Below are positions 1,628-59,109 of a stretch of DNA of 64,000 nt, piece by piece. The notes below the pieces were generated by a model, which worked only from the letters and a program-made list of their open reading frames with translations, searched no databases and was not told the origin of the DNA. How positions within the stretch are numbered: position 1 is the first letter of the stretch; each line of letters opens with the position of its first letter. Source of the stretch: an uncultured Methanosarcinales archaeon (GTDB lineage: Archaea > Nanobdellota > Nanobdellia > Woesearchaeales > WJKL01); NCBI GenBank assembly GCA_964521755.1, contig CAZFSZ010000002.1, positions 7,549-71,548 on the forward strand, written 5' to 3'. The position numbers were made by a program, and so were the translations under genes.

Positions 1628-1973
1628 GGTAGAGAAGCGATAAGCCACCTTTTGTCAGCCTCCACGCATCACATGGGCAGACTGCCTTAACATTCTACTT
1701 AGCGTGCTCAACGGCACTTGCACCAGTCAGGATTCGGATTTCACCGCTCCCATAACCAACGTCAAAGGATTAACTCACTTGCTTCGCAGCAAAGCTTCGC
1801 CATATCATCCTCAGTTATGGACGTGTTTTTCTGACCCATTGCCGCAGATTTCTCCGCCTGCCATAACAGCAGTGACACATAATCAGTGGGTGGACTTTCC
1901 TCAGCGATATTTTAAAAAACATCTGTTTAAAGATGTTAAATCAAATCACCGTCAGTTAAGTGCTTCCCCTACC
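1628..1973 (-). ncRNA. rnpB: RNase P RNA
   Basis: GC-enriched ~346-nt island in AT-rich DNA. The minus strand carries GAGGAAAGUCC (CR-I, plus coords ~1892-1902) and ACAAAAGGUGGCUUAUCG (CR-V-like, ~1638-1660). The 5' end GGUAGGGGAAGC pairs with the 3' end GCUUCUCUACC (P1). An internal GGGAGCGGUGAAAUCCG...GGUGCAAGUGCCG resembles the conserved GNRA/P10-12 region. The overlapping ORF 1704..1976 is spurious. Confidence 0.8.
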
Positions 1974-1988
1974 TAAAATTATAAATTT

Positions 1989-2879
1989 TTAATGGTTTAA
2001 AAAGGTTTCTACTCTCAGAACTTCCCCTCCATGCTTAATCTCTCTTTCTTTTTCAAATCCAGAAACATAGGCTTTTCCTTTGCTAAACTCAACAACACAA
2101 TCAGCCTCAACTTTGTCAATATCAACTTTAACTCCTGCAACTTTTGCATTCATCCCTATAACTTTTGCATAACCTTCAGAATCAAAAGCATGCACATCAA
2201 CTTCTCTCTCTTCTTCATCTTCAAACTTATAATCAAAAAATTTCAAAAAAGGAAATTTATCTTTATTGTAATGATTGACGCTTTTGCCGCTTCCAAAAAG
2301 AGCTGCCTCGATAGCGATTGTTCCTGTCTTGGCATTAAGGTTCAAAAAACTCTTTGAAAAATCATAATCACTTAATCTAACCAAAGCATAAGCTATTGTT
2401 CCTTTCAGATCATCTCTTGTTAATTTAATCTTATAATCTCTTTTGCTTATATCTCCTGAAAAATCAATCCCAACATAACACCTGTCTTTATAGATATAAA
2501 CAAAAACAGTAACATCTGGATTGTCCAGATTTACTTTTCCTACTATTTCATCTCCAGTCGCTTTCTGGACTTCTACATTATCTAACCTATTCTCTATAAT
2601 CTCGCTTCTTGCTGCAAAACTTTTTCCATCCAACCACTTAGAAAAATCAATTTCCTCAATCCTTTTCAAATCAGATATATCTTTTATGTTAAACTCATCC
2701 AGCAAAACTAAAACCCTGTTAGCTCCCTGGCATAGATAACAATACTTTGCTAATTCATTCTTAGAACATTCAAAAACACAGCAGCTTTCCTTGACAGAAA
2801 CTTTCTTTCCTATCAGCTCTTTGATCTCAAAAGCAGTGATGTCCTCCATACCTTTATAAGAAATTGATAACGCCTTCAT
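1989..2879 (-). CDS. THUMP-domain protein (Trm14/RlmL-like N-terminal region; methyltransferase motif degenerate)
   Basis: N-terminal [17 protein letters not shown] and a mid-region VGIDFSGD...RDYKIKL...[11 protein letters not shown] resemble THUMP plus the linker of UPF0020 RNA methylases. The DPxCGSGT motif is not recognisable. Confidence 0.4.
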
Positions 2880-5299
2880 TCTTTTATCTTAGCAGCAGAG
2901 GAAACCTTGTCTCCATCTTTCAGCTTCATAATTCTCACTCCCTGCGTTGCTCTTCCTATCTTAGAAATATCTTCTGCCTTGAACCTTATCCCAATACCTT
3001 TTCTGGTTATAAGCATAAGCTGATCCTCATCTTTTACATCTTTTATCCCTATAACATTTCCGTTTCTTTCAGTGCACTTGATGTTGATCACTCCTTTTCC
3101 TCCTCTTTTGATCAGCCTGTATTTGGAAATATCTGTTCTTTTTCCATATCCGTTTTCAGTTATAGTGAACAAAGATTCGTTTTCCTTAGCAAGGACCATT
3201 CCTACCACCTTGTCATCTTTTCTCAGTCTTATGCCTCTTACACCTCTTGCAGTCCTTCCCATGCTTCTTACATCTTTTTCTTTAAATCTGATAGCCTTTC
3301 CCTTCCTTGTTGCAAGGATTATATTTGATTCTCCTCCAGTCTTTTTGACGCCTATAAGTTCATCATTTTTTTTAAGGCTTAGTGCAATTATCCCTCCTTT
3401 TCTTGGCCTTGAGAATTCTTCTATTGAAGTTTTCTTTACAATGCCTTTCTTGGTCGCCATAAACAGGTATCCTTCTTTGAATTTTTTAACAGGAACATAA
3501 GCAGTTACTTTTTCTTCCTCTCCCAATCTTAATATATTAACAATGGCCTGTCCTTTTGCAGTCCTTCCTGCTTCAGGAATCTCATACACTTTCAGCCACT
3601 TTACCTTTCCTTTGTTTGTAAAAAATAATACATAAGAATGTGTATTAGCTACAAAAATATCTTCGACAAAATCTTCATCTTTTGTCTTTGCTGCAATCAA
3701 TCCTTTTCCTCCCCTTCTCTGTGCCCTATAAGTTCCAATTGGCAGCCTCTTGATATAACCTGAATGTGTTATGCTTATTACCATATCTTCTGGTTTAATC
3801 AAATCTTCTTTTTCTAGTTCTTCTTCCATTTCAACTATCTCTGTTCTTCTTTCATCGCCATAGTTTTCTTTTAATTCTTTTAATTCTTCTTTTATTATTT
3901 TCAAAATCTCATTTTCATCAGCAAGTATCATTTGCAGCTCTTCTATGATTTTTACTAATGATTTATGTTCTTTTTTTATCTTCTCTTGTTCTAATCCTGT
4001 AAGTCTCTGCAGTTTCATATCTAATATAGCTGTTGCCTGTTTATCGCTTATTTCCAGGCTTAAAATCAACTTTTTCTTTGCTTCTTTTGCACTCTCACTC
4101 TCTTTTACTATCTTTATTGTATTATCAATATTTTTCAATGCAATCAAAAGTCCTTTCAAGATATGATCTCTGTCCTGTGCTTTTTTTAAGTCAAACTTTG
4201 TTCTTTTTCTTACAATATTTCTCCTGTGATTGATATAATGCTCCAAAACATCTTTTAAATTAAGAACCCTGGGTTCATTATCAACTAAAGCAAGCAAATT
4301 AACCCCAAATGTAGTCTTTAATCTTGTGTGTTTCATCAGCTGATTCAATACAATGTCTTCATTGGCGTCTTTTTTTAGAGTAATTACAATTCTCATTCCT
4401 TTCTTGTTGCTTTCATCTCTTAAATCTGAAATCCCGCTAACTTTTCCGTCGCTGACCAGATTGGCTATCTCCTCTATTAAACTTGATTTATTCACCATAT
4501 AAGGTATCTCAGTAACAATTATCTTCTTTTTTTCCCCTTCCTCTATCTCTGTTCTTGATTTTACCAGGATCCTTCCTTTTCCTTTCTTATATGCATTCTT
4601 TATTCCTTCTTTTCCTGTAATGATCCCTGCAGTTGGAAAATCAGGCCCCTTGACAAACTTCATTAAATCCTCAATTTCAGCTTCAGGATTCTCAATCAAA
4701 TAAACTGCAGCATCAGCTACTTCATTCAAATTGTGGGGGGGGATATTGGTTGCCATTCCAACCGCTATTCCAGAACTGCCGTTTATCAAAAGATTGGGAA
4801 TTTTTGCAGGCAAAAAAACAGGTTCTTTCAGACTGCCGTCAAAATTAGGGATAAACTTGACTGTCTTCTTGTCAATATCCTGCAGCATCTCTTCGCTTAA
4901 TTTGCTTAGCTTTGCCTCTGTATACCTCATTGCAGCTGCTGAATCTCCGTCAATACTTCCAAAGTTTCCCTGCCCTCTTATAAGAGGCATTCTCATACTA
5001 AAATCTTGGGTCATCCTCACAAGAGAATCATAGACCGCAGTATCTCCATGTGGATGATATTTTCCTAAAACCTCTCCGACAATCCTTGCAGATTTCTTGA
5101 AAGGCTTGTTGTGGAACATCCCCATTTTGTACATTGCATAAAGTATTCTTCTGTGAACTGGTTTTAATCCATCTTTTGCATCAGGCAGAGCCCTTCCTAC
5201 AATAACAGACATAGAATAATCTAGATAAGAGGTCTTCATCTCATCTTCAATTACCTGCTGGACAATTCTTTCCTTTGACTCTGCTTCAGTTCCTGCCAT
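2876..5299 (-). CDS. gyrA: DNA gyrase subunit A
   Basis: 807 aa. N-terminus [32 protein letters not shown] (active-site Tyr region), GyrA box-like QRRGGKG, and a C-terminal beta-pinwheel with repeats. Confidence 0.9.
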
Positions 5300-44227: not shown

Positions 44228-45674
<1,447 letters not shown>

Positions 45675-48083: not shown

Positions 48084-50159
48084 ATGGCTGAAGATGGTGT
48101 TTTTGGTTCTGCTGAAAAAGGATGGGATGTTTATATAGATGGCAAGCTTAAAGGATGGCATAGGACTAAATCATCTGCAGAAGCGGCATATCAGGAAGAA
48201 AAAGAAAAAGAGGCAAAAACAGACGCATCAGAAAAAAGTGATGAGACTGCGCCCCAAAAAGATGAAAAAACGGATTCTCCTTATTCGGGGTCTGGATTAA
48301 AAAAAGGAGCAAAAGCAACTGGAAAAGGTACGTTGAAAGGATTAAAGGCAGTAGGTACAGGAGCAATGGCAGCAGGCGGTGCTGCTCTAGGTGCATTAAA
48401 AAAAGGAAAAACAAGTAAAAAAAGAAGTCCAACAGGCGGTGCTGCTCTAGGTGCATTAAAAAAAGGAAAAACAAGTAAAAAAAGAAGTCCAACAGGCGGA
48501 GCTGGAATATGGTTTATTCTGGCTATAGTTTTATACCTTTTAGATCTGTTTATTACAAAATTTAATGGAATAGACATGGGAGTATTTTTTTCAAGATTTA
48601 TACAGCTTAGCCCTGAAAATATGGCAAGGCTGTTTTTAAATGGGGTTGTACTGGTACTGGCAATATCATACCTTTTATTAAAAAAACCCAGCAAAAGAGA
48701 ATTTTTATCTTTTTTCCTTCTGTTGGAAGTAGGAAGTCTGATCATAACATTGGGAGGAATTGATCCGGGAAGTATAATTCACATTCTGTTTGCTATATCT
48801 TTTTATATTTTTTACTTGTATCCTGTTTCAGGAGACAAGACAACAGCAAACTTTGTACTGTCTATTCTTTTGTTTATAGATTTCTTTGGATTTGGAATCC
48901 TGGCAAATTATGTAAATAATCCAATTATCTCCAACAGATTGATAATCCCTATTTGGATATATGCAATAATATTTACTACAAAAGACAAACCAACCTGGAT
49001 GAATGTTATAACTTTCTTTATAATCATAATAAATGTCTTTGCATTCTGGAACGGAGCAGTACAGCTCGGAAGGATTGAAGCAGGTCTTGAACCTGAACAG
49101 TTAGAAGAAGCCAAGGGTTTTATTTCAGGATCCTTAAAAAACATTGGGGATACATGGGGTTCATTGATGGATCCTGTTTATTGTTCTCGCCAGGAAAACT
49201 ACGATGAATGTTTAAATAAAAGAAGTGCAGAAAGAATCTGCTCAGAATATGAGGCAGGAACAGAAGAGCGTGAAGAATGTATAAATAAAGTACTTGGAAA
49301 AGGGGTGGAAGTAGAGATAAAAGAAGAGTATACTGCTACAGATATTAGATTTGAAGAACTTACAGATGCCGCATGGTATAAAAATATACCATCGAACAGC
49401 AGAGAAGAGATACCTATGAATGTTATCCTGAATGCCCCTATAGATAATCCTATAAATGTTAAACTATCTTGTTTATTTAAAACTGCAGATGAAAATGAGA
49501 TTCCTGGAATAATAAATCCTTCCAGGGCAAGGGAAATGATTGTAAAAGGAAATGACAAGGACCTGGTATATTGTTCCCCTGACCTTCATTACCCTGAACA
49601 AGACAGCATCACAGCTGTATTTGAGGTAACTGCTGAAGACATAACAACTACAGCAGTATTGGAAAGAATATTTGTAGGGGAAAAAATATGGATGGACAGA
49701 AAAGAAAAACAAAAAGTTCAGCAAACAGCTGGCTCATCCTTAAGGGAAAGCCAGGCATCTATAACTGGAGATGAATTTGCAGTTTATACTTTCAGGATAG
49801 GAGCAGACAAACTTGTCTATGATAAATCTACATTAACTTTTACTGGAAAATATGAAGATCTAAAAAAAGATGAAGGGGGGGAGCTTTTGTCTGTAAAAAA
49901 TGTTCTTATAGACCTAAGAGAATATGGTGTAGTCCCTTCACCCAATTGTGAAAAAGAAGGCTATAGGATAACTCAGGATTATAATATAATATGGGAAGGT
50001 ACAGGCAAACCATCACGTTTGACATGTGATTTAATTGTTCCAGAAAAACTAAGAAATATCAAGGATTTTGAAGATTATCCGGTAGAATTTAGGTCAGAGA
50101 TGGTTTATACTTACAAATACACCAAACAAAAAAAGATAGACTTGGTAAGCACAGCTTAA
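48084..50159 (+). CDS. large polytopic membrane protein with duplicated GAALGALKKGKTSKKRSPTG unit and big C-terminal extracytoplasmic domain
   Basis: ~7 TM segments (residues ~150-340), then a ~350-aa hydrophilic Cys-containing domain. Confidence 0.4.
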   Translation: MAEDGVFGSAEKGWDVYIDGKLKGWHRTKSSAEAAYQEEKEKEAKTDASEKSDETAPQKDEKTDSPYSGSGLKKGAKATGKGTLKGLKAVGTGAMAAGGAALGALKKGKTSKKRSPTGGAALGALKKGKTSKKRSPTGGAGIWFILAIVLYLLDLFITKFNGIDMGVFFSRFIQLSPENMARLFLNGVVLVLAISYLLLKKPSKREFLSFFLLLEVGSLIITLGGIDPGSIIHILFAISFYIFYLYPVSGDKTTANFVLSILLFIDFFGFGILANYVNNPIISNRLIIPIWIYAIIFTTKDKPTWMNVITFFIIIINVFAFWNGAVQLGRIEAGLEPEQLEEAKGFISGSLKNIGDTWGSLMDPVYCSRQENYDECLNKRSAERICSEYEAGTEEREECINKVLGKGVEVEIKEEYTATDIRFEELTDAAWYKNIPSNSREEIPMNVILNAPIDNPINVKLSCLFKTADENEIPGIINPSRAREMIVKGNDKDLVYCSPDLHYPEQDSITAVFEVTAEDITTTAVLERIFVGEKIWMDRKEKQKVQQTAGSSLRESQASITGDEFAVYTFRIGADKLVYDKSTLTFTGKYEDLKKDEGGELLSVKNVLIDLREYGVVPSPNCEKEGYRITQDYNIIWEGTGKPSRLTCDLIVPEKLRNIKDFEDYPVEFRSEMVYTYKYTKQKKIDLVSTA
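48375..48494. repeat. exact 60-nt tandem duplication within CDS
   Basis: GGCGGTGCTGCTCTAGGTGCATTAAAAAAAGGAAAAACAAGTAAAAAAAGAAGTCCAACA occurs twice back to back (48375-48434, 48435-48494). Confidence 0.9.
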
Positions 50160-51057: not shown

Positions 51058-51993
51058 ATGAAAAAACTACCTTTAATTTTATTTGTATTGGTTCTTACAG
51101 TTATTTGCGGCTGTAGGAGACAGCCCGGACCAGATGATGAACAAGATATCTCTAGAGATATCTATAAAGGCGCCAAAGGCCTTGAAATGAACTTTATCAA
51201 AGACATGCCTCAAAGTAGGATTTATGATACATCGGATCTAACTATCCTGCTTGAATTGGAAAACAAAGGCACTTATGATCTTTCTGGAACCAATTGTAGA
51301 TTATATCTTTCTGGATTCGATGATAAAATAATAAGGGGATTAGATAAGACCAAGATATGTTCTTCTTTTCTGGAAGGAAAAAGTCCCTTAAACCCTGAAG
51401 GCGGATATTCCACTCAACAATTTTCTACAGACCTCATCAATCTTCCTGATTATCTTGATTCGCTTAATCAAAGAATATTATTGACTGCATGCTACGAATA
51501 CAAGACAAAAGCCTCCCCTGTTGTATGTATTGACCCTAATCTTTATGAAATTGGCCCTATCGAAAGAGGGTGCACAGTAAGAGACGTCTCAGTACCGGGG
51601 GGCCAGGGAGCACCTGTTGCTGTATCAGGAGTTAATGTTGAGATGGTTGGCAAAGAAAAAGTATCTTTCAATATAAAATTATCTAATACAGGGGGAGGGA
51701 CAGTGCTAAACTCTGGAGCAGATGTATTCACTGACTGCCCTTATCAAATAAACCCAAAAGATTATAATATAGTAAGATATGAAGTTGATATGTCAGGAGG
51801 AACAAAAATAAGATGCACTCCTGAAATTGAAGGAAGTGAAAAAACTAGGCTTGTGAATAACAAAGGAACAATATATTGCACCTTTGATATTTCAGGAGAT
51901 TCAGCCTATACAACACCGTTAAGGATAACTTTAGACTATAACTATATGGATTCAATCTCAAAAGATGTTGAAATAATAAAAACACCAGGATGA
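51058..51993 (+). CDS. secreted (lipo)protein, paralog B
   Basis: Signal peptide ...LTVICGC. Motifs ELENKGTYD, NPEGGYS, VPGGQGAPVAVSGV, and C-terminal LRITLDYNYMDSISKDVEIIK. Confidence 0.55.
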   Translation: MKKLPLILFVLVLTVICGCRRQPGPDDEQDISRDIYKGAKGLEMNFIKDMPQSRIYDTSDLTILLELENKGTYDLSGTNCRLYLSGFDDKIIRGLDKTKICSSFLEGKSPLNPEGGYSTQQFSTDLINLPDYLDSLNQRILLTACYEYKTKASPVVCIDPNLYEIGPIERGCTVRDVSVPGGQGAPVAVSGVNVEMVGKEKVSFNIKLSNTGGGTVLNSGADVFTDCPYQINPKDYNIVRYEVDMSGGTKIRCTPEIEGSEKTRLVNNKGTIYCTFDISGDSAYTTPLRITLDYNYMDSISKDVEIIKTPG

Positions 51994-56868: not shown

Positions 56869-57729
56869 TTATTTTGTTCTTTTTTCTAATAATCCTTTGA
56901 GAGAATCTTCATCAAAACACTGCTTTTTCAGACCGCATTTACAGCATTTGTTTTGGTTCTCTGTTCTTTTTGGGATTTTATTCTCTTCTAATAATCTTCT
57001 GACCTTATCCTTTAGTTCTTTTACTTCTTCTTTTAAAAAAGGATTTATCACCACCTGTCTTCTTTCATCAGGATCAAGATAATGGATAAAGGCTTCTTCT
57101 ATCTTTTTGCCGTACTTCTCTTCCATCATTAAAGCATATGCTCCTATCTGAACCCTGTGACCGGGCCATACCCCTTCCTTAGGCATACTCCCTGTCTTTA
57201 ATTCTACAGGCACATAACCTTCAGGATAAATCTCTATCTTGTCTACAATCCCTTTTAATTCAAGTTCATCTGAAGCTATCTTTTTTTCAGATTCAACTTT
57301 GGGAACCAAATTGTCCCATAATTCAACCCCATACAGGTTAGATTTAACAATAAATTTGTATATGTTTAATGCTCTTATCTCACTTTCTCTCTTAAAAAAA
57401 GGCCATATCTCATGATATGCATCGATCAAAGGAAGCTTGATGTTCCTTAACCTGTATTTGTTCTTTGTAATGGATTTTCTTAATAAAGCAGAATAAGTCT
57501 TTGCATATCTGTTATAGATATCTTCAAATTCATCTCCTTTTTTGATACTTGAAACAATTCTTTCTTCTACCTTGTTTGCCTCGTCATAAGTCTCATGCCT
57601 TATGCTGCCCTTTACTAAAGCTGCTTTTTCAGGCTCAAACAGCCCTAAAACCCTCTCTAAAAACAACTTTCTAGCGCAGTATAGGTAAGAACTTAACATA
57701 GTAACAGATATTCTTCTCTTTCTAGCCAT
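56869..57729 (-). CDS. Cas4-like PD-(D/E)xK nuclease with C-terminal Fe-S Cys cluster (DUF83/RecB family), standalone
   Basis: N-terminal SSYLYCARKLFL (Cas4 YxCPRKhWL-like). GIVDKIEIYPEGYVPVELKTG gives the D...ExK core. RVQIGAYALMM is the QhxxY motif. C-terminal CCKCGLKKQC gives the Cx2Cx5C pattern. Confidence 0.65.
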   Translation of the reverse strand: MARKRRISVTMLSSYLYCARKLFLERVLGLFEPEKAALVKGSIRHETYDEANKVEERIVSSIKKGDEFEDIYNRYAKTYSALLRKSITKNKYRLRNIKLPLIDAYHEIWPFFKRESEIRALNIYKFIVKSNLYGVELWDNLVPKVESEKKIASDELELKGIVDKIEIYPEGYVPVELKTGSMPKEGVWPGHRVQIGAYALMMEEKYGKKIEEAFIHYLDPDERRQVVINPFLKEEVKELKDKVRRLLEENKIPKRTENQNKCCKCGLKKQCFDEDSLKGLLEKRTK

Positions 57730-57772
57730 ATAAAATTATTAAAATCTTTGATTTATATAGCTTATGGGTAAA

Positions 57773-57842
57773 TGTCCAGTGACCAGTGGTTATCTGGACT
57801 CTTACGCTCTGTCCAGTGACCAGTGGTTATCTGGACTCCTAC
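57773..57842. repeat. two tandem copies of a ~33-nt hairpin-forming repeat (TGTCCAGTGACCAGTGGTTATCTGGACTC..TAC)
   Basis: Exact 29-nt cores at 57773-57801 and 57810-57838, period 37. Each contains the inverted repeat GTCCAG...CTGGAC. Lies 45-115 nt upstream of the Cas4-like gene start. Confidence 0.85.
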
Positions 57843-58098
57843 CCTTATATATTAAATTATAAAATCAAAACAATAAATCTTAAGTTTGCATTGAAAAGTT
57901 CTCCGTCTGTGTTAGGTGCCTGCACGATGTGCGACTCTTCGCTATTGCCAATTATTGCACAGCAATAATGGCATGGTCAGACGTAGCTGGCTGGGTTGCC
58001 ATACTTTAGTGGGGCGTTCCAGTCAGCGAAGTATGAAAATTTTCAATGCGACCATCTTAAAGAAACCTTTTTATACTATTTGCCTAAATAATACTTTA

Positions 58099-59109
58099 AT
58101 GGATATCAAAGAAAAATTGGACCTGATAAAAAGAAACACCCAGGAGATTGTTACAGAAAAAGAACTAGAAAAACTTCTAAAGACAAAAAAACAGCCTTCT
58201 GTTTACTTGGGGGTTTCTATAACTGGAAAACCTCATATCGGTTATTTTATGTGGGTTCTGAAACTTTCTGATTTTCTTAAAGCTGGATTCAATGTAAAAC
58301 TTTTGCTTGCAGATATTCATGGAGCCCTGGACAACACCCCGTGGGATTTGCTTGAAAACAGGTTAAAATATTATTCAATCGTGATTCCCGCCATGTTTAA
58401 ATCGATAGGCGCTGATATAAAGAACTTTGAGATTGTAAAGGGCTCTGATTTTCAGCTAGGTAAGAAATACACGATGGATGTATTGAAGATTGCTACTTAT
58501 GCTTCTGTACATGATTGTAAAAAAGCTTCTTCAGATGTAGTAAAGCAGGCAGAGTCTCCAAAATTATCTGGTCTTATATATCCCATAATGCAGGCACTGG
58601 ATGAGGAGTATCTCAAGGTAGACATACAGTACGGCGGAATAGATCAAAGAAAGATATTGATGTTTGCCAGAGAATATCTTCCCAAGATAGACTACAGACC
58701 TAGAATTGAGGTGATGACCCCTTTGATTCCAGGACTTACTGCCTCAGGAAAGATGTCTGCCTCAGAAAAATCTTCAAAAATAGATCTGCTTGATTCAGAA
58801 AAAGATATCAAGAAAAAGATTAACTCAGCATACTGTCCTGAAGGAGAAATTAAAGAAAATGGTGTTTTAGCTTTTGTGAAACATGTAATATTCATGATTA
58901 AAGAAGATTTCATAATAAACCGCCCTGAAAAATGGGGAGGGGATCTTTCCTACAAAAACTACAAAGAGCTTGAAAAAGACTACAAAGAAAAAAAGCTGCA
59001 CCCTATGGATCTTAAACAAGCATTGGCAAAAGAGATCAATGAATTGGTAAAACCAATAAGAAAAGCTGTTAAAGGAAAAGAATCATTGATAAAAAAAGCA
59101 TATCCATAA
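58099..59109 (+). CDS. tyrS: tyrosine--tRNA ligase (archaeal/eukaryotic type)
   Basis: Class I pattern: ...YLGVSITGKPHIGYF (HIGH-like) and KMSASEKSS (KMSKS). The ORF-track start 57916 is an upstream in-frame extension; the true start is likely MDIKEKL at 58099. Confidence 0.85.
   Translation: MDIKEKLDLIKRNTQEIVTEKELEKLLKTKKQPSVYLGVSITGKPHIGYFMWVLKLSDFLKAGFNVKLLLADIHGALDNTPWDLLENRLKYYSIVIPAMFKSIGADIKNFEIVKGSDFQLGKKYTMDVLKIATYASVHDCKKASSDVVKQAESPKLSGLIYPIMQALDEEYLKVDIQYGGIDQRKILMFAREYLPKIDYRPRIEVMTPLIPGLTASGKMSASEKSSKIDLLDSEKDIKKKINSAYCPEGEIKENGVLAFVKHVIFMIKEDFIINRPEKWGGDLSYKNYKELEKDYKEKKLHPMDLKQALAKEINELVKPIRKAVKGKESLIKKAYP

Follow-up and report, generated by a model that had tools for sequence, protein, structure and literature searches.

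Here we show that the unusually long spacer between a solo cas4-like gene and the divergently oriented gene for tyrosyl-tRNA synthetase (tyrS) in a Woesearchaeota (DPANN) archaeon is likely an ordinary two-way promoter region to which a 37-base tandem duplication and a 169-base transposon-like insertion have been added. The ancestral state would have been a divergent promoter region common to two core genes, tyrS and a solo-Cas4 nuclease gene passed on vertically, which two independent and ordinary mutational events would have enlarged to 369 nt in this genome, namely (i) a 37-bp tandem duplication of a motif-bearing segment, probably by replication slippage, yielding a second, more distal motif copy and an incidental segment able to fold as a long hairpin, and (ii) the arrival of a 169-bp GC-rich, non-coding insert with terminal inverted repeats (TIRs) just upstream of the tyrS BRE/TATA, duplicating 8-9 bp of target sequence (ATCTTAA(A)G). 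The footprint of the latter would fit the mobilization of a non-autonomous, MITE-type element by a cut-and-paste transposase. The core promoters of the cas4-like gene and of tyrS are both still intact after the duplication and the insertion.

The stretch analysed, hereafter the window, comprises 64 kb and is assigned to a Woesearchaeota host on the basis of an archaeal RNase P RNA within it (1628-1973; Rfam scan) and of its nearest TyrRS relatives, which are named as tyrosine--tRNA ligases of Woesearchaeota. It was compared with about 90 related Woesearchaeota loci (91 in the blastn set), three of which were aligned with the window (alignment A1: window, L003, L005, and L017, the latter three with TyrRS identities to the window of 92, 77, and 75%, respectively). 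The features of the locus are summarized in Table 1. At 369 nt the spacer between the two divergent genes is an outlier in length, as a preliminary description of this DNA had suspected, since the spacers upstream of tyrS in about 85 relatives compared are mostly ~30-230 nt long. In relatives it measures only ~100-140 nt and consists of the cas4 TATA box, 12 nt, the CACTGGACAT/TGTCCAGTGACCAGTGG motif and, soon after, the tyrS BRE/TATA. On the tyrS side, the 397-aa ORF that begins at GTG 57916 was found to be a spurious N-terminal extension across the GC-rich segment, again as proposed earlier, with the conserved start identified in A1 at ATG 58099. The tyrS BRE/TATA is invariant in all four sequences of A1, and L012 and L015 likewise have it.

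Table 1. Features of the cas4-like/tyrS locus, in window coordinates.
Feature	Position	Strand	Details and evidence
solo-cas4, Cas4-family PD-(D/E)XK nuclease	56869..57729	-	286 aa, four cluster cysteines; Pfam, TIGR00372, PDB, synteny
cas4-like TATA box, TATATAAA	57752..57759	-	22 nt from start codon; putative promoter role, from position and conservation
ancestral motif copy	57772..57789		core CACTGGACAT 57772-57781 on - strand; 17-mer TGTCCAGTGACCAGTGG 57773-57789
tandem unit 1	57773..57808	+	36 nt; GTCCAG-N14-CTGGAC at 57774-57799; repeat search
tandem unit 2	57810..57845	+	36 nt; lineage-specific duplicate, missing in relatives; 94% identical to unit 1
AT-rich spacer	57846..57876		matches position of 30-nt L003 spacer (pairwise alignment after in-silico excision)
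left target copy ATCTTAAG	57877..57884		single ATCTTAAAG in empty sites L003, L005
GC-rich non-coding MITE-like insertion	57885..58053		169 nt, internal hairpins; TIRs 57886-57900, 58037-58051
right target copy ATCTTAAAG	58054..58062		A1 and in-silico excision alignment
tyrS BRE/TATA block AAACC TTTTTATA	58063..58075	+	23 nt from start codon; intact
tyrS, tyrosyl-tRNA synthetase	58099..59109	+	336 aa, true start ATG 58099; Pfam tRNA-synt_1b; start aligned with relatives

Several lines of evidence place the product of the cas4-like gene in the Cas4 family. The ORF matches Pfam Cas_Cas4 with 68.3 bits (cut-off 22.7) and NCBIfam TIGR00372 (cas4) with 102.2 bits (cut-off 65), PDDEXK_1 was also matched, and its best PDB relatives are the Cas4 proteins 4R5Q, 7MI4, and 8D3L. 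Its translation shows the motifs YCARK(LFL), GIVDKIEI, VELKTG, QIGAY, and CCKCGLKKQC, and holds the RecB D, ExK, and QxxxY residues as well as four Fe-S cysteines (one N-terminal, the others in a C-terminal CxxCx5C). The Cas4 signatures first noticed in the preliminary description (YCARKLFL, VELKTG, QIGAY, CCKCG...C) are thereby confirmed in both the translation and the family scores. While typical Cas4 proteins are ~180-220 aa long, that of the window has 286 aa and, unlike them, carries an insert of ~80 aa between the N-terminal Cys motif and the nuclease core, the HMM matches falling on residues 5-63 and 144-272.

The genomic surroundings of the gene are those of a solo-Cas4. No cas gene was found within about -5 to +9.7 kb of it (precomputed Pfam annotation of contigs identical to the window), and no CRISPR-like array across the 64 kb (TRF), in agreement with the earlier observation that neither is nearby. 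Its neighbours encode CorA, LtrA, PRC, RFC, TyrRS, and an M24 peptidase, in place of the adjacent cas1/cas2 genes or array by which a CRISPR-associated Cas4 is recognized. The order RFC, PRC, cas4-like gene and, divergently, tyrS and M24 peptidase is maintained in genomes whose TyrRS identities span 62-92%, and cas4-like orthologues in matching synteny were identified in L003, L004, L005, L007, L012, and L017; the divergent pair has unchanged flanking genes in L003, L004, and L005, and L007 has one inserted ORF. Because this synteny is conserved, the cas4-like gene is, judged from gene order, a vertically inherited core gene and not an MGE-borne one. The association with viruses or MGEs that had been considered for it was not upheld, given its housekeeping synteny in at least six related genomes, and the virus, plasmid, or integrated element and the variable context that characterize MGE-borne Cas4 were not encountered. 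Most DPANN archaea encode solo-Cas4, mainly through vertical inheritance (Hudaiberdiev et al. 2017, PMC5704561), and these genes typically occur without CRISPR (PMC5704561). The window protein resembles DPANN solo-Cas4 (COG1468/PF01930/TIGR00372) in its RecB-type motifs, its four cysteines, and its scores above the curated cut-offs, and likewise in the distance of its gene from any CRISPR-cas locus and its occurrence in a small-genome archaeon.

Among the candidates put forward in the preliminary description, an integration or repeat remnant comes closest for the GC-rich segment upstream of tyrS, in that the segment is bounded by inverted repeats (IRs), flanked by a duplicated target, and missing in relatives. 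Its GC content reaches 52% (57900-57999) against a window mean of 34%; 80-nt stretches with at least 50% GC are common in the coding parts of the window. The GC-rich part is bounded by the inverted repeat GCATTGAAAAGTT / AAATTTTCAATGC, which is short and AT-rich, matches at 12/13 positions, and extends to 15 nt, and is flanked by the duplicated 8-9-bp target ATCTTAA(A)G. The two copies of this target-site duplication (TSD) differ by one A and are offset from the IR by 1-4 nt. At the orthologous site in relatives the element is missing, the window having ~260 extra nt between two conserved A1 blocks, and its flanks become colinear with L003 once the element is excised in silico. When the spacer was shuffled 2000 times with its dinucleotides kept, no shuffle gave both an IR of 12/13 or better and a flanking direct repeat of 7 nt or longer, whereas such an IR alone arose in 2.8% of shuffles and the AT-rich window has many IRs that are 13 nt or longer (37 pairs). 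Within the window, the TIR 13-mer occurs solely at the element.

The element is predicted to fold strongly on either strand (-66.7 kcal/mol, z -5.2 on the + strand; -56.2 kcal/mol, z -4.6 on the - strand), and near-equal fold significance on both strands is as expected for DNA-level palindromy. The segment and its folding were thus described correctly at the outset, whereas the perfection ascribed to its hairpins was not: GCCAATTATTGC-ACA-GCAATAATGGC forms an 11-bp stem with a 1-nt bulge and is therefore imperfect.

Searches for further copies of the element covered the 64-kb window of the host genome plus external collections. No second copy was found by blastn in the window or the 91 related loci, none in IMG/VR with three exact patterns, none in JGI metagenomes with one exact 20-mer, and none by distant blastn in phage and plasmid collections. 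Another exact 20-mer gave a single Bacteroidota match among GTDB representatives, which does not extend past 20 nt and is attributed to chance. Diverged copies would be missed by all of these exact-pattern scans. The element peptides, concatenated from six frames, had no protein homologue among 5.8 billion proteins. Since neither a second copy nor an Rfam match was found, we infer the mobility of the element, and hence its probable arrival by transposition, rather than observe it. In other respects it has the makings of a MITE, being non-coding and shorter than about 500 bp, and having both TIRs and a TSD with an empty site in relatives. Like prokaryotic MITEs (e.g. Sulfolobus SM1-4; PMC11602168), it is small (169 bp), intergenic, and non-coding, with TIRs and an 8-9-bp target duplication; it folds as a long hairpin, and relatives have an empty site in its place. 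Unlike them, it is known from a single copy with no identified parent IS or transposase, its TIRs are short (13-15 nt) and imperfect, its TSD copies differ by 1 nt, and its GC content is ~47-52% in a 34% GC genome. Other classes of element were considered and set aside: a DGR template repeat, as no VR-like partial copy is present in the window, and a retron, omega-RNA, or IS200/605 PATE, as no gene for RT, TnpB, or IscB adjoins the element and it carries a TSD.

An alternative that we regard as unlikely, if the best placed of those considered, is that the GC-rich segment is a lineage-specific structured ncRNA gene or a MITE-derived sRNA read from the + strand. Such an RNA might have a TATA-like promoter in the AT-rich spacer (57845-57865) and ends paired in a terminal stem, and might affect tyrS/cas4 expression. 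In line with it, the + strand fold (-66.7 kcal/mol, z -5.2) is ~10 kcal/mol better than that of the - strand, four G-U pairs in one + strand hairpin are compatible with an RNA role, T-runs follow the element, and in AT-rich archaeal genomes a GC-rich island is often an RNA gene, as is that of the RNase P RNA at 1628-1973. TATA-like sequences also lie 25-40 nt upstream, but such strings are ubiquitous in 66% AT intergenic DNA, and the - strand fold is significant as well. Further, a target-site duplication is not expected of an RNA gene, the element is missing in the closest relative (L003, TyrRS 92% identical), and no homologue was found in ~90 related loci or the other collections searched; there is therefore no covariation in favour of an RNA. 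No Rfam family was matched even at E <= 10. A scan of the whole window with Rfam 15 gathering scores, which took in T-box, tRNA, C/D and H/ACA sRNA, SRP RNA, and ribozyme families, returned the RNase P RNA alone, and no tRNA was found by ARAGORN. The Rfam check over the spacer that the preliminary description had proposed, run on 57700-58120 at E <= 10, gave nothing relevant, with no match below E 0.79 and two AT-rich chance matches outside the GC-rich part. Its suggestion of a small ncRNA is therefore not supported, nor is a conserved tyrS leader, with no Rfam match, no conservation in relatives, and an element that lies upstream of the tyrS TATA. An aaRS leader or tyrS regulatory 5'UTR is likewise out, the element being upstream of the conserved BRE/TATA and missing in relatives.

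The duplicated segment, for its part, contains a motif that is older than the duplication. The 17-mer TGTCCAGTGACCAGTGG is 100% identical and single-copy in L003, L005, and L017 (TyrRS 92, 77, and 75%), and the 10-nt core CACTGGACAT is situated exactly 12 nt upstream of the cas4-like TATA box in about 10 loci, this TATA box being conserved in A1 and in 12 promoter regions. In loci from other genomes the 10-mer was found seven times against ~0.9 expected, six of the seven being cas4-like promoters, and it stays with the cas4-like gene even when tyrS is not adjacent (L014). In the cas4-like promoter the repeat core is a cis-element of deep conservation and probably a protein-binding site. As the TATA box is only 22 nt from the cas4-like start codon, a leaderless or near-leaderless mRNA is implied; leaderless transcription starts are predicted at about 57729 for cas4 and about 58099 for tyrS. 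A motif match in IMG/VR (L006) was rejected, as it comprises 20 identical nt in phage-like surroundings where Shine-Dalgarno sites are used, and the number of hits is about that expected by chance for an 18-mer.

Because the motif is positioned upstream of BRE/TATA, it probably represents a transcription-factor site of the activator type. Archaeal promoters have upstream activating sites, such as those for Ptr2 or Lrp-type activators ahead of BRE/TATA. Like these, the window motif is short and conserved, lies at a fixed 12 nt upstream of the TATA box in a divergent promoter, and would be located at about -50 to -40 from the expected start site. Unlike classical palindromic sites, it is a direct heptamer repeat, the conserved core resembling CCAGTGA CCAGTGG more than a palindrome, and the likeness to activating sites is one suggested by sequence comparison. 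No report of a conserved motif upstream of solo-cas4 was found in the literature. The motif could help to fish for the regulator, and hence the physiological role, of DPANN solo-Cas4.

In the window this motif-bearing segment is present twice, in two units with a 37-nt period that differ at 2/36 positions. The preliminary description had reported two tandem units of ~33 nt (57773-57842); their presence stands, while their length is corrected to 36 nt each (57773-57808 and 57810-57845). The sequence GTCCAG-N14-CTGGAC, also reported there, is present exactly two times in the window, where 0 would be expected, yet the separate hairpin envisaged for each unit gives way to ONE long inter-unit hairpin in the minimum-energy fold of the pair (-39.2 kcal/mol, z -7.3). 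No further copies of the repeat were found in the window with up to 3 mismatches. Relatives carry one motif copy only, the CTGGAC arm is missing in L003, L005, and L017 and specific to this genome, and the last core base is altered in the distal copy (CACTGGACAG).

It could be argued that selection fixed the duplication as a functional operator pair, i.e. two dyad sites 37 bp apart for a cooperative dimeric (w)HTH regulator of cas4 and/or tyrS. The unit core is indeed under strong purifying selection and keeps a constant spacing to the cas4 TATA, as would a protein-binding site, and each unit of the window has 6-bp inverted arms. However, since relatives are single-copy and without the CTGGAC arm, neither the pair nor the dyad is conserved. 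In addition, the distal copy has the altered last core base, no regulator gene is adjacent, a spacing of 37 bp puts the two sites on roughly opposite helix faces, and the core is closer to the direct heptamer repeat than to a palindrome. We consequently find an operator pair quite improbable. What survives of this earlier proposal is the core as a conserved promoter cis-element; the pairing reflects a recent duplication, and the CTGGAC arm is confined to this genome.

Insertion next to the tyrS promoter does not appear to be peculiar to the window. In L015 and L007, a different GC-rich element of 122 nt, with TIRs of 16-18 nt and a perfect TSD of 9-10 nt, occupies the matching orthologous site, for which L012 provides the empty site. 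Local alignments of the window element with the L015 and L064 elements were no better than those with shuffles. Two dissimilar elements, each with a TSD of ~9 bp, are accordingly found in two lineages within 1-2 nt of one orthologous position. MITEs at high density have been documented in a Woesearchaeal genome (PMC11602168). The empty-site comparison suggests that small GC-rich TIR elements are active in these reduced genomes and can land repeatedly at one promoter-proximal position, both promoters being spared.

On this basis, unrelated GC-rich TIR elements may land preferentially at the upstream edge of the tyrS BRE/TATA in these Woesearchaeota, which, if true, would suggest that a DPANN transposase family targets promoter edges; alternatively, hairpin-forming inserts may be retained because they serve, between the divergent promoters, as insulators, terminators, or sRNAs. 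As a separate matter, a small regulon not described before, with solo-Cas4 and a LAGLIDADG-type nuclease gene among its members, may be defined by CACTGGACAT-N12-TATA, and this, if true, could give a handle on the function of DPANN solo-Cas4. Taken jointly, a landing site or functionally kept hairpins at the tyrS BRE/TATA edge together with a separate CACTGGACAT regulon are given only a slim chance.

We consider it very unlikely that the duplication and/or the GC-rich insert were mis-assembled, whether from collapsed strain variants or through a chimeric join. While the units differ at only 2/36 positions and the repeat is where independent Logan contigs from SRR7048227 break off (57796) and begin again (57809), a 9.7-kb contig identical to the window (L002) runs from unit 2 through the AT-rich spacer and the entire GC-rich element into tyrS. 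This contig starts (57809) with the unit-2-specific junction base C, and L001 has the unit-1-specific left flank, so both unit contexts exist in the reads. The clean TSD/TIR geometry of the element also speaks against an artefact.

Finally, there is next to no chance that the units are degenerate CRISPR repeats or a leader tied to the Cas4 gene, a reading invited by 29-36-nt units with palindromic arms adjoining a cas4-family gene and effectively refuted by the presence of two units only, whose starts are 37 nt apart and which therefore have essentially no spacer between them, by the lack of further unit copies in the window (an array having at least three repeats with unique spacers) and of cas1/cas2 or effector genes nearby, by the single copy at a fixed promoter position in relatives, and by the typical occurrence of DPANN solo-Cas4 without CRISPR (PMC5704561). 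The CRISPR-like distribution of the repeat contemplated in the preliminary description was not seen, the repeat being unique in the window and single-copy at the matching locus in relatives. Judged by the refuting outcome that the preliminary description itself had named, a repeat confined to this locus and a structure not conserved among relatives, both the ncRNA and the CRISPR-like readings fail. The main value of the analysis is that a false lead has been cleared, in that the locus represents neither a cryptic CRISPR remnant nor a riboswitch-like tyrS leader or known RNA.

Elsewhere in the window, a GC-rich island at 51527-51665 lies inside a 311-aa ORF and is therefore read as coding.

The 286-aa product of the cas4-like gene matches the Pfam families Cas_Cas4 and PDDEXK_1, scores 102 bits against NCBIfam TIGR00372 (cut-off 65), has Cas4 proteins as its closest solved structures, and displays RecB motifs and four cysteines in translation. 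It exceeds a typical Cas4 by approximately 80 aa, and its HMM and PDB matches fall into two blocks (residues 5-63 and 144-272), implying an insert that follows the N-terminal Cys motif and precedes the nuclease core. From -5 to +9.7 kb around the locus, annotation shows no genes for cas1, cas2, an effector, or a transposase, and TRF identified no CRISPR-like repeats in the 64 kb. Both the gene assignment and the absence of a nearby CRISPR-Cas system thus agree with the preliminary description, which as a whole was confirmed with small corrections, its interpretation being supported in part.

Looking up exact protein matches and scanning metagenomes with TyrRS yielded ninety related loci. The gene order RFC small subunit, PRC-barrel, (LtrA, CorA), cas4-like gene and divergent tyrS, M24 peptidase, M29 peptidase is also found in loci L003, L004, and L005 (TyrRS 92%, 78%, and 77% identical to that of the window), and L007, L015, and L012 have the same RFC-to-M29 order plus one additional ORF. 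Given this conserved housekeeping synteny, and given that solo-cas4 is mainly inherited vertically (PMC5704561), the suggested association with mobile elements was not sustained. The window gene is a core gene rather than MGE-borne, in agreement with published phylogenomics (PMC5704561), and a further case of the already known DPANN solo-Cas4, which occurs without CRISPR-Cas in most DPANN archaea, Woesearchaeota included (PMC5704561). The window itself is AT-rich (34% GC) and archaeal, as it carries an archaeal-type RNase P RNA (115 bits, E 1.6e-31), the sole Rfam family at gathering score in the whole window; the nearest named TyrRS homologues belong to Candidatus Woesearchaeota, and ARAGORN found no tRNA genes across the 64 kb.

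Features of the window and of related loci (window positions unless a locus is named)
Feature	Position	Strand	Details
RNase P RNA	1628-1973	-	archaeal type
Microsatellite	45618-45674		(AAT)19
60-nt unit	48373-48504		2.2 copies, 98% identity
cas4-like gene	56869-57729	-	286-aa Cas4-family nuclease
Spacer cas4-like/tyrS	57730-58098		369 nt
Unit 1	57773-57808		tandem repeat
Unit 2	57810-57845		tandem repeat; 94% identical to unit 1; period 37 nt
Left TSD copy	57877-57884		ATCTTAAG
Window element	57885-58053		GC-rich, 169 nt
Left TIR	57888-57900		GCATTGAAAAGTT; 12/13 match with right TIR, extends to 15 nt
Right TIR	58037-58049		AAATTTTCAATGC; 12/13 match with left TIR, extends to 15 nt
Right TSD copy	58054-58062		ATCTTAAAG
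tyrS BRE/TATA	58063-75		untouched; downstream of window element
tyrS start	58099	+	ATG; GTG 57916 opens a spuriously extended 397-aa ORF
Different GC-rich element	L015 2331-2452 (= L007 2831-2952)		122 nt; L007/L015 TyrRS 76%
Third TIR element	L064, ~170-320 nt upstream of tyrS		148 nt; TIRs ~19 nt, AGTCTGTGTGGGCAGGGTC / GACCCGCCCAGCACAGACT

With tyrS starting at the ATG, as the preliminary description had anticipated in calling the longer ORF spurious, the spacer measures 369 nt; that it is unusually long was borne out by the approximately 85 related loci in which the spacer upstream of tyrS is mostly ~30-230 nt. A spacer alignment including the window, L003, L005, and L017 contains two invariant blocks, one comprising the cas4 start, TATA, and motif, and the other (ATCTTAA)AGAAACCTTTTTATACT followed by tyrS. 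In the window ~260 nt lie between these blocks, compared with 30 nt in L003 and 0-4 nt in L005 and L017. The window element, a GC-rich segment upstream of tyrS, carries terminal inverted repeats (TIRs) and is flanked by a target-site duplication (TSD), of which L003 and L005, whose sites are empty, hold a single ATCTTAAAG; in-silico deletion of 57885-58062 renders the window colinear with L003 again. When the spacer is dinucleotide-shuffled, an inverted repeat of such quality alone arises in 2.8% of cases, and inverted repeats of at least 13 nt are frequent in the AT-rich window, so the weight rests on its combination with a direct repeat of 7 nt or more on its flanks (0 of 2000 shuffles). Taken together, these features point to an insertion bounded by TIRs and a duplicated target, for which we use the label MITE-like insertion, a further case of a known prokaryotic kind; of the candidates proposed earlier for the GC-rich part, an integration remnant comes closest.

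The segment had also been described as structured and as a possible ncRNA. Its fold is real and strong, but is found on both strands (z -5.2 on the plus and -4.6 on the minus strand), and the hairpin called perfect carries a one-base bulge. Transcription as an ncRNA, which the ~10 kcal/mol better folding of the plus strand would favour, is considered unlikely, and conservation as an ncRNA is not supported, as neither an Rfam match nor a second copy in 91 loci was found. No second copy was found in the protein collection, phages, or plasmids, nor in IMG/VR or JGI metagenomes, where exact patterns would miss diverged copies, and an exact 20-mer gave only a chance match in GTDB representatives; these exact-pattern scans failed to recover the window itself, the collections being searched without the host genome. 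Neither a protein-level homologue in any frame nor similar sequence elsewhere in the window was detected. A canonical tyrS transcript leader is ruled out because the tyrS BRE/TATA lies downstream of the element.

Beyond this MITE-like insertion, a different element with no detectable similarity to it occupies the same orthologous position in L007 and L015, with TIRs of 16-18 nt (GGGTCTGTCCCAAGTC / GACTTGGGACAAACCC), a perfect 9-10 nt TSD (AAATCCTTA(G)) that immediately precedes the same GAAACCTTTTTATA block, and a matching empty site just upstream of tyrS in L012. A third lies in the 392-nt tyrS upstream spacer of L064, where no clear TSD was seen. Scanning ~0.5 Mb of window and related-locus DNA for MITE signatures revealed no clear case apart from these sites upstream of tyrS. 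MITEs occur in 20% of archaeal genomes, one Woesearchaeal genome being among the densest (PMC11602168 census); a modest by-product of our analysis is that unrelated TIR elements recur at a single promoter-proximal site.

The two tandem units are likewise real, with no further copies in the window, but their best joint fold is a single long inter-unit hairpin (-39.2 kcal/mol, z -7.3) rather than the two separate hairpins described. Exactly one copy of TGTCCAGTGACCAGTGG, 100% identical to that of the window, is present in the orthologous spacers of L003, L005, and L017, despite an identity of just 75-92% between the flanking proteins; with one copy per spacer and units unique in the window, a CRISPR-like reading does not hold. 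These three loci lack the 3' arm CTGGAC that forms the hairpin in the window, so the hairpin is not what is conserved. In the direction of cas4, exactly 12 nt separate the core CACTGGACAT from the TATA box (TATATAAA or TATTTAAA) downstream of it; the box in turn precedes the start codon by ~22 nt, indicating a leaderless cas4-like mRNA. This arrangement is kept in ~10 loci, even where the cas4-like proteins share just ~40% identity, and is present in L014 though tyrS is not the neighbour. The 10-mer CACTGGACAT occurs in seven loci from other genomes (~0.9 expected by chance), six being cas4-like promoters; in the seventh, L035, CACTGGACAT, 12 nt, and TATATAAA (2551-2582, plus strand) precede a LAGLIDADG-motif ORF (~2628-3398), so cas4-like genes are not alone in having the motif. 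Of the two units, unit 1 represents the ancestral copy with the correct spacing, and unit 2 is a lineage-specific 37-bp tandem duplicate with its core altered to CACTGGACAG.

We infer that the motif is a putative transcription-factor site of the cas4-like promoter, whose placement upstream of BRE/TATA would fit an activator-type site. The proposed operator pair was half right: a conserved promoter core at fixed spacing exists, but relatives carry a single copy without the CTGGAC arm. The CACTGGACAT-N12-TATA element conserved in solo-cas4 genes is a second modest by-product.

Two independent Logan contigs of run SRR7048227 break inside the tandem repeat (L001 ends at 57796, L002 begins at 57809), suggesting graph ambiguity or population copy-number variation; L001 carries the unit-1-specific left context and L002 the unit-2-specific junction base, which supports a real duplication rather than an artefact. 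One IMG/VR viral contig of 116 kb (IMGVR_UViG_3300035698_013589) contains, at 220-239, a 20-nt stretch identical to TGTCCAGTGACCAGTGGTTA; this stretch sits in a bacterial-style Shine-Dalgarno context and was rejected as a related motif, one match being about the chance expectation for the 18-mer searched. The LAGLIDADG-like ORF of L035 is divergent from a HisRS-like gene, such that its motif, as in the window, lies in a divergent promoter common to an aminoacyl-tRNA synthetase gene. In another Woesearchaeota lineage (L008-L010), a small HTH_45 (winged-helix) gene replaces the cas4-like gene and precedes tyrS on the same strand, 38 nt away.
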